Part shown: in pieces, positions 7,534-12,531 of the stretch
How positions within the stretch are numbered: the stretch's first letter is position 1
Layout: each line of letters opens with the position of its first letter
Origin: Curvularia clavata
Lineage: Eukaryota
Direction: 5' to 3'
Length of the DNA stretch: 64,000 bases
Assembly (NCBI GenBank): GCA_023920165.1
Contig: CP089274.1
Span: 620,001-684,000 of the forward strand
Position numbers and translations under genes: made by a program
The notes under the pieces: model-generated
Seen by the model: only the letters and a program-made list of their open reading frames with translations
The model's database searches: none
What the model was told of the DNA's origin: nothing

Positions 7534-8744
7534 TTATGCAGCTACCGCCACTGGTAACTGTTCAAGCGCCTCTTGCTCTGGCTCCTCCTTCTCCTCAATG
7601 GTAGCAGGTACCTCGACCTCTGGCGTCTCTGATCGCAAGTCGCACTCTTTTGAAAGTCGCGACGGCTTCTCAATGCCAGCATCGACGGTGACGTACGAGG
7701 TTGCATCGCATCCCTCGCCGTAAAAGTCGCATGGTGCGAGATCACCCAGAGGCCTACGGTCCTCGTCCATGGCGTCTTGAGCAAGCTTGCGCGAGTTACG
7801 GCGCTTGACAGGCGAGTCATTGAGAATCTCAGTCTCGTAGCCGTCGTCCTCGATAAGAGAAGCAGCTTGAGAGCGGGGCTGAGAGGCACGGAAGTCTGGT
7901 GGTGGGATGTTCTCCTTTCCGCGGTCCTCGTTGCGGGTCTTAGCCTCGACATCGTCATCAGATGAGATGTCGAGAACAGAGGCAGAGTGCTCCATGAGGT
8001 TTGCAGCCTCTTGCTCAGGCGTGTCCTCGTGAATCTCGAAGAACCAAGCCTTGGGCATGGACTCGTCGAGAACGGTGACTTGACGAGCGGGTGCTGAGAC
8101 GGGGGTTGCAGCTACCGTGGGTGCCTTTGGAGTGTAGGTGGAGATGGACCCGCTGAGCGCTGCATCAATGGAGAAGGGTAGCTTGGGGCTGCTCTGGGAG
8201 AAAGACGGAGGGTCAACGCGTCGGAAGGGCGAGCTGGACGCGCGACGCTTGGAAATGGCATGGAGACGCTTGTTCTTTGGTGATCCACGGCTGTTGGTGA
8301 TGGGAGTCGACTTGGTGGAGCTGGGCGAAGAGAGGGCCTTGCGGGTAGAGGGGACAGAAGGCGTGGCATTGAGGCTGGTGCTGGTCTTGACGGGCGAAGT
8401 GAAGATGGCGAACGGGGCGGGCTTGACGTATCCAGCATCGTTGGTGGAGGTGGTTTTTGACTTTTTGGTTGGGCTGCCGGTGATGAAAGGGTCCACGTTC
8501 TCGGAATCGGCATCCTCGAAGATCTCCGGCGCGCGCTGGCGCTTACCCGTCGAAGAGCCGGGCGTAGACTTCAAACCTTGCAACGCCGCAAAGCTGGAGA
8601 TGGCTATACGAATGCGCGGTTAGCAAATGGCACACTACACGTAATTCAAGGCTCTTTACAATTCTGTTTGTTTTTTGCGCTCTGGAGTCCTTGAAGCCGG
8701 GACGTGCCGAGCTCGGCAAATGGCTGGCGCGTCGAAGTAGCCAT
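7534..8744 (-). CDS. Disordered cell-cycle protein with ABBA/KEN/D-box motifs (putative Acm1-like APC/C inhibitor)
   Basis: Exon 1 MATSTRQPFAELGTSRLQGLQSAKNKQN is joined through intron 8659..8604 in frame to the 349-aa ORF. Contains FEIHED, KENIPP, RRPLGDL and several S/TP-x-K/R sites. Confidence 0.75.
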
Positions 8745-9115: not shown

Positions 9116-9121
9116 ACGCGT
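9116..9121. promoter_or_regulatory. MCB-like element ACGCGT upstream of the Acm1-like gene
   Basis: Perfect MluI site about 370 bp upstream of the ATG at 8744. A hexamer can occur by chance. Confidence 0.3.
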
Positions 9122-9992
9122 CGCTCGGACTCGACACGCCCTAGCGTGTCTGTCACGTACTCTAGGGGCCGACGCCCACGACCGCGTTCAAGGCGTCATC
9201 TCCACTCGATCCCAGACACTTGCGGGCACGGGCGCCCCGAATTGGGTGCTGCAAACCGGGTTGGCCCCTCATTACCGCCATCAATGCAATCCCATCTACT
9301 GGCCGTCATGCCTTGGATCCACCTGCAGCATAGCCAGCCCAGGCCGCCCCCTCTCGCCATTAAACACGCTCGCGCTGCGTCCACGGCACGTAGACGTGAA
9401 CTGCCGGTTCCTGCGCTCGCTTGGCGCGTCCTTGAGTGCGACTGGAACGAGCGGCGTGCTTCTTGTGTCAGGTCACCGAGCACGGTTGTGTAAATGCTAC
9501 ATCATGGGTGGTTGGCGGCCACCTGTGCTGAGCTCTGGTATCATCTAATTTGGACCTCTTCTCTCCAAGTCTCAGCCGTCTGGTCCTAATGTTTCGACGC
9601 GTAGAGTGTATGCACGTCAGCAGCGTATTCCCAGTATCCTGCTGAGCGCGACAAGGCGCCATATGCATGCGACTATGCTTCATCACGCAAACACTTCCAA
9701 GGCTGGGGAATCTGTTGGCTGGCTGGCTGTATTCCGTTACACGCTCGCACAGCCTTTCGCGCACCACCACCACCACCACGCTGCACCAAATACACCAACC
9801 TTCTTCTTCTGAAGCGCCGAGAAAAAAAACTTTCGTGATTACATCTCCACAAAAATCCCCAGATCTTCATTCTTTACCCTAGTAGTAATCGCGACATGGT
9901 CGTCGCGCATCGCCGTTCCTATACCACGCCAATCAGCGACCCCACATAAAAAATCCGATAGACTTTCGCTCCCAGCCGACAACCTGTGTAGA

Positions 9993-11321
9993 CTAGTACT
10001 TGGCCACACGGGCGGGGGTCTCGCCCCAATTAGCATTCCAATACGTCGCGTTATCCTCGTCGGAGCTACTCGCGTATCCGCCATTGCTTCTTCCGTTGCT
10101 CCCGTCCTCCCAGCCATGCTGATTTTCAACGCGTATTTCTTCCCGAGACGTGCCGCGTCGACGTGACATGGCTGTGTCGTGATAACTTCGCACACTTTCT
10201 ATTAATGACGAGCGTATACTATTTGAACCTGCAATACTGACGTCACTGATTGTCTTGCGTCGCTCGAATCCGTCCCAGGTTGCTTCGCTAAAGGAGCGCG
10301 CTGGACCGTCGAACCCATGTTGCTGGAATGAAGTCTCACTCTCGGTCCAGTCAGGATTGTCTACAGCTTCGGATCCATGACTCCACCTTTCGGGGCTGTT
10401 GGGTCGACCAGTTGCACAAGCAAATGGGTGAGGCAACTTGGATGGCGAGACCCAGCCTTTGTTCTCGTTGGTACTCCCGTTGGAACTGCGAGCATTTCCC
10501 GTCGTGCTATTTTGCGAGCCGTCTTTCCAACCTGTCACCTTCGCCATGAAGCCTTTTTGCGACCGGATAGACGCTTTGCTAGTAGACGAGGACCCATCTT
10601 CATCCTCTGACTCCGGTATAGGCGAGAGTGGTCGGGGTGAGTTTGGGATGTAGTTCCACTTATCTTTCTCGTGTCTCCTCTTTGCTACTTCGGCATCCTC
10701 TGCAAACCCTCTCGTACTCATGTACTGATCCCGTGGAGGCAGTACTGTCGAAGGTGCTACAGGAAAAGGCGACGACGATTCGACTGTAGAAGCGGCTCGG
10801 ACCCAACGTCGCTCGTGCTGCTTTTCATTGTGAACTTTCCGCGGTCCAGAATCAAATTCTCCTTCTTCATCCACCACAACAACCCGTCCATCCTTGTCCT
10901 TGATAACGAACGTCCCCCATCGCCGTGGCACAGGCACAAGCACCTTTTTTTTCTCTTTCTCCATTTCTCTACCCTTCTTTACCTTCCTCACCTGCACCTT
11001 ACCTCGCAAATCCCGAATCTTATCCATATGGCGCCGTACATCACCACTCACGGCTTTCTTCGCATTCTCATTCCAAACCTGCTCGTCACCCTTCTTCCTG
11101 GTTTCTTCTTTTTCATGTCTTGCTTGTCTGTCTGATATACTACTACTACGCAGCACTATGTCCTCGTCGTCATCGACAAAGCTGCCCGTGTACGCTGAAG
11201 TGTCTGAGAAGGTGCCTCGTGAAACCCATTTTGCTACCCGCTGCTTGTCGAGGCCTTGGGGTAAGCGGTTGGCTATAGAGCCGCCGTCGTCGAGGAAAGA
11301 CGGCGGTGTTATGGCGCTCAT
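9993..11321 (-). CDS. Hypothetical low-complexity protein, 442 aa
   Basis: Long ATG-initiated ORF, charged and Ser-rich, with no recognisable domain. Confidence 0.55.
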   Translation of the reverse strand: MSAITPPSFLDDGGSIANRLPQGLDKQRVAKWVSRGTFSDTSAYTGSFVDDDEDIVLRSSSISDRQARHEKEETRKKGDEQVWNENAKKAVSGDVRRHMDKIRDLRGKVQVRKVKKGREMEKEKKKVLVPVPRRWGTFVIKDKDGRVVVVDEEGEFDSGPRKVHNEKQHERRWVRAASTVESSSPFPVAPSTVLPPRDQYMSTRGFAEDAEVAKRRHEKDKWNYIPNSPRPLSPIPESEDEDGSSSTSKASIRSQKGFMAKVTGWKDGSQNSTTGNARSSNGSTNENKGWVSPSKLPHPFACATGRPNSPERWSHGSEAVDNPDWTESETSFQQHGFDGPARSFSEATWDGFERRKTISDVSIAGSNSIRSSLIESVRSYHDTAMSRRRGTSREEIRVENQHGWEDGSNGRSNGGYASSSDEDNATYWNANWGETPARVAKY

Positions 11322-11727: not shown

Positions 11728-12531
11728 TTACAACTTCGCCTTCTCCATTTTCTTCTCTTGCTCCCACTGCAATTGCACCTTACGCATCTTATACCAACTC
11801 CACAAACCCGCCACAGCCCCAAACGGTGGAAACACCCAGAGCAAGAAACTCCACCACCGTGGACTTCTTTTCCTCACATCCTGCATCACTCTCTGCACCT
11901 CCTTTTCCAAATAACTCCTGTCATGGTCGTTCCAGATAACGACACCATTCCCTGGTCCCCTCCTCAAACAATGCTCTGCCTTTTCCCGCACATCACCCTG
12001 GCTCATGACGCGATTCCGTGCATCCTCCTCGGTAAGATGCGCATCTCGCGCTCGCAACCGCTGGATCTGGATCGCGGGGTCCGACACTCCAACGACGAGG
12101 ATGGTGCCGCAGTAGCGTTCCCAGCCGCTCTCGAACAATAGAGGGACATCCAGTACAACAGCCCAGTTGCCGCGGAGATACGCCCATATCATTTGTCTGT
12201 ACATTTCCTTGCGTACGGCCGGGTGCACAATGCTATTCAACATTTTCCTGTCGCGCTCTTTTTCCTCGCCTGCGCCGAAGACTCTACGGCCTAGCGCTGG
12301 TCGGTTCAGCGGCGCGCCTCTGGGTGTGGGTGCGTCGGAGAGGAGTAGGTCGGGCGTGGTGGGAGAAAAGTATTTCACAATGGCGTTGTAGCCGGCTGTG
12401 CCGGGCTCGACAACTTGTCGCGCGATGAGGTCGGCATCTATGATGGGGAGAGAGTAGGGCGGCTTGGAGAGGAGAGAGGAGACGGTCGATTTGCCGGTTG
12501 CAATGGAGCCTGTGAGGCCGAGGAGGAGCAT
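11728..12531 (-). CDS. CAB5: Dephospho-CoA kinase
   Basis: GLTGSIATGKST P-loop, IDADLIARQVV, LNSIVHPAV and VLDVPLLFE; hydrophobic C-terminal helix. Confidence 0.93.
   Translation of the reverse strand: MLLLGLTGSIATGKSTVSSLLSKPPYSLPIIDADLIARQVVEPGTAGYNAIVKYFSPTTPDLLLSDAPTPRGAPLNRPALGRRVFGAGEEKERDRKMLNSIVHPAVRKEMYRQMIWAYLRGNWAVVLDVPLLFESGWERYCGTILVVGVSDPAIQIQRLRARDAHLTEEDARNRVMSQGDVREKAEHCLRRGPGNGVVIWNDHDRSYLEKEVQRVMQDVRKRSPRWWSFLLWVFPPFGAVAGLWSWYKMRKVQLQWEQEKKMEKAKL

Follow-up and report, generated by a model that had tools for sequence, protein, structure and literature searches.

A two-exon gene in the 64,000-nucleotide stretch of Curvularia clavata DNA analysed here (the window) probably encodes a pseudosubstrate inhibitor of the APC/C that is expressed at G1/S and acts mainly via Cdh1. 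Stoichiometric inhibitors of APC/C-Cdh1 are found in budding yeast (Acm1) and in animals (Emi1, Rca1). An initial annotation of the window had proposed an Acm1 orthologue or analogue. The part of this proposal that stands is that the protein works like Acm1, which is supported by its motifs, their conservation, a complex model and an MCB box in the promoter; that it is an Acm1 orthologue is less certain.

A spliced gene encoding a disordered protein

The gene lies on the minus strand, ends at a stop codon at 7534 and gives a product of 384 aa (Table 1). Its intron is spliced out exactly (8659-8604) in contigs from four of four public runs; one of these is recorded as RNA, two are guessed to be RNA and one is of unknown kind, with no DNA run among them. 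Transcript-like contigs extend to 9008 and 7281. The spliced product is identical to the NCBI protein of C. clavata, which is called 'hypothetical' at NCBI versus 'Thymidylate kinase' at UniRef, and the gene is single copy in its own genome. The intron was absent from the initial annotation and must be removed to connect the N-terminal RQPFAEL with the remaining motifs; once this is done, RQPFAEL is found as had been reported, at aa 6-12 (8729-8709). No Pfam family scored over cut-off on the 384-aa protein, and its Atlas model has a pLDDT of 0.46 and a pTM of 0.11. The protein is intrinsically disordered.

The adjoining 442-aa ORF (9993-11321, minus strand) has no Pfam match and is followed by a dephospho-CoA kinase gene at 11728-12531. 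On the other flank are an acyl-CoA dehydrogenase and a short-chain dehydrogenase.

Table 1. Features of the gene and its upstream region, in window coordinates
Feature	Position	Strand	Remarks
Exon 1, coding part (aa 1-29)	8660..8744	-	ATG at 8744
Intron, 56 nt, GT-AG, CTAAC branch site	8604..8659	-	Predicted; absent from transcript contigs
Exon 2 (aa 29-384 and stop)	7534..8603	-	Prediction, database protein, transcript contigs
N-terminal block, aa 6-28 (R6-x-P8-F9-x-x-L12 ... R16 ... K24-N25-x-Q27)	8661..8729	-	R6, P8, N25, Q27 in 18/18
Second, degenerate KEN-like motif xENxxP (D61-x-E63-N64-x-D-P67)	8488..8508	-	D61, E63, N64, P67 in 18/18
Full CDK site SPTK, aa 72-75	8464..8475	-	S, P, K close to invariant across 52 Dothideomycete sequences
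G135-S136-P137, basic cluster K140-R149 and SPFR153	8221..8286	-	G135, S136, P137, K140, R148 in 18/18
R-x-D-P-P (aa 157-161) and F-S-I-D-A-A-L-x-G (F172-L178) blocks	~8220-8155 (marker 8202)	-	Kept across classes
ABBA (A) motif F217-E-I-H-E-D222 and probable helix to H234 (WFFEIHEDTPEQEAANLMEH, aa 215-234)	7987..8046	-	
KEN box K258-E-N-I-P-P263 (KENxxP; GKENIPP aa 257-263)	7900..7917 (GKENIPP 7920-7900)	-	
D-box R311-R-P-L314-G-D-L317 (RRPLGDLAPCDFYGE, aa 311-325, 7758-7714) and D-F-Y-x-E-G extension, aa 321-326	7711..7758	-	
Conserved MCB box ACGCGT	9116..9121	.	372 nt above ATG, ~110 nt above the 5' end of the transcript contigs
Second conserved ACGCG core, same promoter cluster	9183..9187	-	
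Further ACGCGT	9597..9602	.	Sequence match

Conservation of the ABBA, KEN and D-box motifs

The initial annotation had placed an ABBA motif, a KEN box, then a D-box, in that order, along the protein, and all three were confirmed on the sequence together with their positions. The protein has just one RxxL (at aa 116) besides R311/L314. The D-box fits published preferences at P3 (Pro), P5 (Gly), P6 (Asp) and P7 (Leu); P9 is non-consensus and the consensus Asn is lacking. The reviewed ABBA consensus, Fx[ILV][FY]x[DE], has Phe or Tyr at P4 (PMC5717348); P4 is His here and His, Tyr or Phe across the family, off that consensus. In the Aspergillus members of an 18-sequence alignment P5 is Val, which counts against the inhibitor reading. 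A helix following the ABBA motif is predicted from contact periodicity in the complex model described below. Over the ABBA stretch, two of 47 family members gave a weak match to Cyclin_N2 (PF16500), below cut-off (E 0.018 and 0.12).

By a hand estimate, the ordered triple would arise by chance in ~4e-6 of proteins of like composition (0.014 for ABBA × 0.058 for KEN × 0.027 for RxxLx[DE][ILV], divided by 6 for order). We consider conservation a stronger test. Among the best 120 of 713 hits, which were recruited by a similarity that includes the motifs and so are biased toward retaining them (the N-terminal blocks are common to them too), the ABBA pattern was present in 120/120, the KEN box in 119/120 and a D-box of the form R-x-[PA]-L-x-[DE]-L in 118/120. 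Of the 118 hits from this set that could be scored, 117 had 41-43 aa between the ABBA Phe and KEN. The distance from KEN to the D-box was 39-66 aa among the matches listed, and is 53 in the window protein (K258 to R311).

We also aligned the window protein with 46 cluster members (47 sequences, 23% mean column identity). Here the Phe and Ile of the ABBA motif, K-E-N, the Pro at KEN +3 and the D-box Leu were invariant in 47/47; beyond these, E-N-x-x-P further upstream and a handful of small or basic residues did not vary. Across classes, W215, F217, I219, D222, H234, K258-E-N, P262-P263, R311 and L314 were kept in 18/18. A lack of motif conservation among orthologues had been named at the outset as grounds for rejection; the ABBA, KEN and D-box motifs are instead the best-conserved residues of the family.

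CDK sites and other conserved blocks

Two further blocks resemble degrons. The N-terminal block (aa 6-28), almost invariant in the 47-member alignment, is a candidate non-canonical D-box with Phe at P4, and is possibly a degron for the protein's own turnover. The xENxxP motif, whose E, N and P are invariant in 47/47, appears comparable to the NEN degron of Acm1 or to GxEN degrons; NEN and GxEN motifs bind the KEN pocket (PMC3690534).

Four full CDK sites had been claimed, and SPTK72, SPVK98, SPFR153 and SPVK292 are all present on the sequence. Three of them are also retained: in the best 120 of 713 hits, S-P was kept at SPTK72 and SPFR153 in at least 90% and at SPVK98 in 70-80%, whereas S292 was unconserved. 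The most widely kept proline-directed site was one that the initial annotation had not listed, G135-S136-P137 (18/18). The basic cluster beside it, K140-R149, is a candidate CDK-gated nuclear localisation signal. A stretch at aa 149-154, upstream of the D-box and found in Pleosporales only, is RxxSxP-like and resembles the 14-3-3 consensus. After the D-box, no conserved [ST]P was found in the 47- or 18-sequence alignments.

The R-x-D-P-P and F-S-I-D-A-A-L blocks match no APC/C degron consensus and may bind another partner. Many family members carry a second ABBA-like motif within their last 60 residues (aromatic/acidic-hydrophobic-W/F/Y-E-S/D; for example F-E-L-W-E-S or I-E-I-W-E-S); this widespread motif is absent from the C. 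clavata protein. No conservation was seen beyond aa 350, either in the best 120 of 713 hits or in the 47-member alignment.

A conserved MCB box in the promoter

ACGCGT is the MCB box, which is bound by MBF-family factors including PCG2 of Magnaporthe (PMC4862756), and in yeast the SBF/MBF regulon includes ACM1 (PMC4943722). Since the hexamer is unenriched in the window (9 observed versus 13.3 expected), conservation was used as the test. From 57 related loci we retained the 27 with a full 1500-nt upstream flank, leaving aside 30 with shorter flanks, and excluded one more (L069) in which the match begins mid-protein. In the resulting 26 loci, several of which are near-duplicates so that counts are not independent, ACGCGT occurred at locus positions 600-1100 in 20, compared with 2/26 and 1/26 for control hexamers in the same promoter zone. 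The 20 include 6 of the 12 loci at ≤55% identity.

When aligned, 12 of 13 promoters have the box in a single column; in three distant loci that lack the precise hexamer, tandem ACGCG cores stand where their relatives carry it. The conserved MCB boxes thus make the gene a candidate for MBF-driven expression at G1/S. Other conserved words lie beside the MCB cluster at ~9150-9400, namely ACACGCTA, TTCACGTC and, in several relatives, a CCAAT box.

Range of the family

A profile of 52 Dothideomycete sequences retrieved 574 clusters at 50% identity, of which we inspected the best 150. Twenty cluster representatives were looked up, and 12 of them fell in clusters with a name. The named members belong to Sordariomycetes, Eurotiomycetes, Leotiomycetes, Lecanoromycetes, Geoglossomycetes and Dothideomycetes. 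The family thus spans at least six classes of Pezizomycotina, in agreement with the occurrence in this group that had been proposed. A query with an Onygenales member returned many aspergilli among the best 120 of 505 hits, and the member in Aspergillus nidulans FGSC A4 is AN7996 (334 aa). No named Saccharomycotina protein was present among the best 120-150 of the 713, 574 and 505 hits.

An Atlas search with the core of the protein gave nothing above a score of 0.78, and the full protein retrieved just unnamed clusters of the family itself, plus a securin lead, to which we return below. The core's closest Atlas look-alikes, also at 0.78, are plant (Streptophyta) proteins without a name, 285-338 aa long; they are a lead only, and possibly are degron-bearing regulators.

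Coactivators and a model of the complex with Cdh1

The genome encodes Cdc20 (L002), Cdh1 (L003) and an Ama1-like activator (L004), the Cdc20 and Ama1-like genes being assigned from sequence features. Five residues of yeast Cdh1 give Acm1 its specificity: I311, L325, K333, I344 and P374 (PMC3690534). C. clavata Cdh1 keeps two of the five, namely the equivalents of I311 and P374, each of which hardly varies among 61 Cdh1s; at the positions of L325, K333 and I344 it has Gln, Thr and Thr. Thr at the K333 position is the Cdc20-type residue and weakens inhibition by Acm1 (PMC3690534). C. clavata Cdc20 keeps none of the five. For Cdh1 as the main target, these receptor residues give a mixed signal.

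The same Cdh1 (L003:1732-2583, G000:C8) has a ~36-residue Ala/Ser-rich insertion in its WD40 domain, which is shared with Bipolaris maydis and not with human or yeast. The third coactivator (L004, G000:C6:2401030-2402109) is divergent, with long insertions, and is probably Ama1-like.

Prediction of a complex with the Cdh1 WD40 domain had been suggested as a check. We modelled aa 207-335 with the WD40 domain of B. maydis Cdh1, which is 99% identical to exon 2 of C. clavata Cdh1; the prediction was made without alignments. All three motifs were docked in their known pockets, with a score of 0.68 versus 0.05 for the best control, and because a like complex has been solved (4BH6, Acm1), this shows likeness only and may be memory. 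The score mark that was reached is one reached by 51/78 solved versus 2/108 mismatched microbial pairs, and, among eukaryotic pairs, by 39/65 without a like complex versus 2/126 unrelated, in a benchmark without disordered chains. Agreement between model runs was 57% of contacts or better, with a partner pLDDT of 42 or higher. In the model, confident partner contacts are confined to the ABBA motif, the helix, the KEN box and the D-box; the ABBA motif sits in the A-site of Cdh1, and on Cdh1 the contacts map to the pockets expected, the P374 equivalent among them.

Alternative explanations

ABBA motifs are also carried by substrates such as cyclin A and Clb5 (PMC5717348), so motifs alone cannot tell an inhibitor from a substrate. 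The protein might therefore be a high-affinity APC/C substrate whose true function, such as that of an adaptor or a transcriptional co-regulator, resides in the blocks at aa 135-178. True substrates, too, have ABBA, KEN and D-box elements (PMC5717348), and how tightly a degron binds is not enough to tell whether its bearer behaves as inhibitor or substrate (PMC12401543). The R-x-D-P-P and F-S-I-D-A-A-L blocks, kept across classes with no degron consensus to match, fit such a role; lying outside the inhibitor reading (aa 157-178), they count against it. Set against this, the protein has no folded domain and most of its invariant residues are degron residues. Its D-box is without the consensus Asn and runs on into a conserved extension, the type of element reported for inhibition by Acm1 (PMC12401543), and one member without the middle blocks (P0243, maybe a mispredicted gene model) keeps the degron cassette. 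We regard a substrate as unlikely.

More elaborate forms of inhibition can also be drawn from the arrangement of motifs. The N-terminal block with xENxxP, the central ABBA-KEN-D-box and, in many members, the C-terminal ABBA-like motif could form a double cassette, by which a single chain would hold two coactivators, or would bind Cdh1 and Cdc20/Ama1 by turns, like BubR1 without the spindle checkpoint. This is a rather unlikely arrangement in our estimation. If it held together with the CDK-gated nuclear signal, APC/C activity could be set nucleus by nucleus in multinucleate hyphae.

It is less probable still that the target of the pseudosubstrate is Cdc20, the Ama1-like activator or a pair of coactivators at once, in the manner of Mes1 or BubR1. 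The absence of the K333 determinant from C. clavata Cdh1 would suit such a target, as would the presence of Cdc20, Cdh1 and Ama1-like genes in the genome, the resemblance of the ABBA region to the cyclin A APC/C-binding model (2/47 members, below cut-off), and the second KEN-like motif, N-terminal D-box-like block and often present C-terminal ABBA-like motif. However, C. clavata Cdc20 has none of the five Acm1 A-site residues, the MCB promoter suggests G1/S, a stage at which Cdh1 has to be off, and the C-terminal motif is missing in this species.

That the protein is the securin of these fungi is very improbable. Securins are disordered and poorly conserved, with KEN and D boxes (PMC6690013); the Pfam securin model matched nothing in the C. 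clavata genome, in what was an uninformative search, and an Ascomycota securin cluster is the nearest named Atlas look-alike (score 0.78, a lead only). Yet PF04856 was found in 0/47 members at E up to 1, and of the members of that separate Ascomycota cluster 55% do match it. In securins the degrons are N-terminal and a conserved Glu patch comes after them at the C-terminus (PMC6690013), whereas the degrons here are central or C-terminal and nothing is conserved past aa 350.

A thymidylate kinase, the database name of many family members, can be dismissed: the name has support from UniRef and NCBI entries alone, PF02223 matched 0/47 members, the protein has no fold, and the true thymidylate kinase gene lies ~217 kb away on the same contig. 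We consider the name wrong, which bears out the suspicion of misannotation raised at the start. A second kind of misannotation in the family is a Chaenotheca gracillima member called 'RNA helicase' at NCBI.

Proposed mechanism and significance

Returning to an inhibitor acting mainly through Cdh1, we propose that MBF, acting at the conserved MCB boxes, would activate the gene at G1/S. The protein would then wrap the Cdh1 WD40 propeller, with the ABBA motif and helix predicted to lie in the groove of blades 2-3, the KEN box on the top face and the D-box entering the groove of blades 1-7. With three degron pockets filled, mitotic cyclins would, by analogy with Acm1, escape APC/C-Cdh1 in S/G2, and the acidic-aromatic extension of the D-box would probably hinder Apc10. 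The CDK sites beside the basic cluster may govern stability and location, and the N-terminal D-box-like block may serve to remove the protein at mitotic exit. Presumably the protein would back up, not replace, CDK phosphorylation of Cdh1.

This last point is shaped by genetics in A. nidulans, where the loss of pucA can be survived only when cdhA is deleted too (PMC6078057). It follows that nothing else suffices to inactivate CdhA there, which limits the protein to a back-up role, as with the non-essential Acm1 (PMC4943722). Such a role would follow if expression or stability of the protein needs G1 cyclin-CDK.

In the model of the same 2018 paper, the cyclin PucA alone shuts off CdhA, and the paper describes A. 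nidulans as having no obvious Emi1, Acm1 or Rca1 homologue (PMC6078057). AN7996 makes that description testable, since it is a conserved, probably MBF-driven inhibitor candidate present in A. nidulans and across filamentous ascomycetes. We found no description of the family in literature titles or abstract openings; supplements, subscription papers or orthology databases may already link it to Acm1. In one Aspergillus paper, as far as its accessible portion goes, AN7996 merely marks the edge of a cluster in a table (PMC3689640); the other papers that contain the string are bacterial. The 'Acm1' of PMC4862756 is an APSES-family name for a different protein, and in the accessible text of a Beauveria Cdc14 paper Acm1 occurs in the reference list only (PMC4824431). 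What is new here is the conserved MCB box upstream of the gene, which parallels the SBF/MBF control of yeast ACM1. If the reading is true, a missing layer is added to the G1/S circuit of moulds, the Acm1 strategy is far wider than budding yeasts, and a propagated 'thymidylate kinase' database error is corrected.

Comparison with known inhibitors

Mes1 of S. pombe and OSD1 of plants are disordered coactivator blockers with a tandem KEN/GxEN and D-box, as here (PMC3690534). Compared by description, they differ in that they inhibit in meiosis and their motifs lie close together, and an ABBA motif is not described for them in the accessible part of that source (PMC3690534). BubR1/Mad3 are alike in having several ABBA, KEN and D-box elements in a disordered chain that block coactivator pockets (PMC5717348). 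They differ in their TPR domain, PF08311 being found in 0/47 family members. In C. clavata, Bub1/Mad3 is encoded by a gene of its own on a different contig.

Acm1 has an A motif at F61-Y64-E65-E66, a helix running to residue 80, an NEN at 90, a KEN at 98 and a D-box at R119, together with a Cdc20-specific D-box at its N-terminus and a 14-3-3 site at T161 (PMC3690534). The claim that the protein has the same ABBA-KEN-D order as Acm1 holds against this description (PMC3690534). Of the Acm1 motif flanks quoted at the outset, the residues borne out by He et al. 2013 are F61, Y64, E65, E66 and R119 to V127 (PMC3690534).

The differences from Acm1 are several. The family proteins are 330-460 aa long versus 209, the window protein being about twice the length of Acm1. 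The linker from KEN to D-box is two to three times longer (39-66 versus 21 aa), and P4 of the ABBA motif is His. The xEN motif is ~195 aa before KEN, compared with 8 in Acm1. The N-terminal D-box-like block has Phe rather than Leu at P4, and there are extra conserved blocks at aa 135-178. A 14-3-3 CDK site after the D-box, like T161 of Acm1, is not conserved in the family, and the partner Cdh1 is without the yeast K333, unlike that of Acm1. There is also no detectable sequence similarity to Acm1 in searches of solved-structure sequences. Reciprocal retrieval of Acm1 had been suggested as a check and, in the forward direction, it failed: Acm1 was not recovered at E up to 10 when the 127-aa core, the 51-aa ABBA-KEN segment or three profiles (A1, A2 and A3) served as queries, a motif-only comparison under HMMER filters, and the chance hits had E 0.26 or worse.

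The likenesses to Acm1 begin with a disordered chain, the order ABBA-helix-KEN-D, a similar ABBA-to-KEN spacing (41-43 versus 37 aa) and the KENxxP form of the KEN box (PMC3690534). They extend to a non-consensus D-box end that carries an extension, an additional xEN motif, CDK sites and a candidate D-box-like block at the N-terminus. Residues C-terminal to the D-box of Acm1 are reported to hinder Apc10 (PMC12401543), and the acidic-aromatic stretch after the D-box is conserved here in both the 47- and 18-sequence alignments. Both genes have an MCB-type promoter, ACM1 being an SBF/MBF gene (PMC4943722). As an independent parallel with ACM1, the conserved MCB box raises the odds both of the inhibitor function and of common descent with yeast Acm1, towards which we lean modestly.
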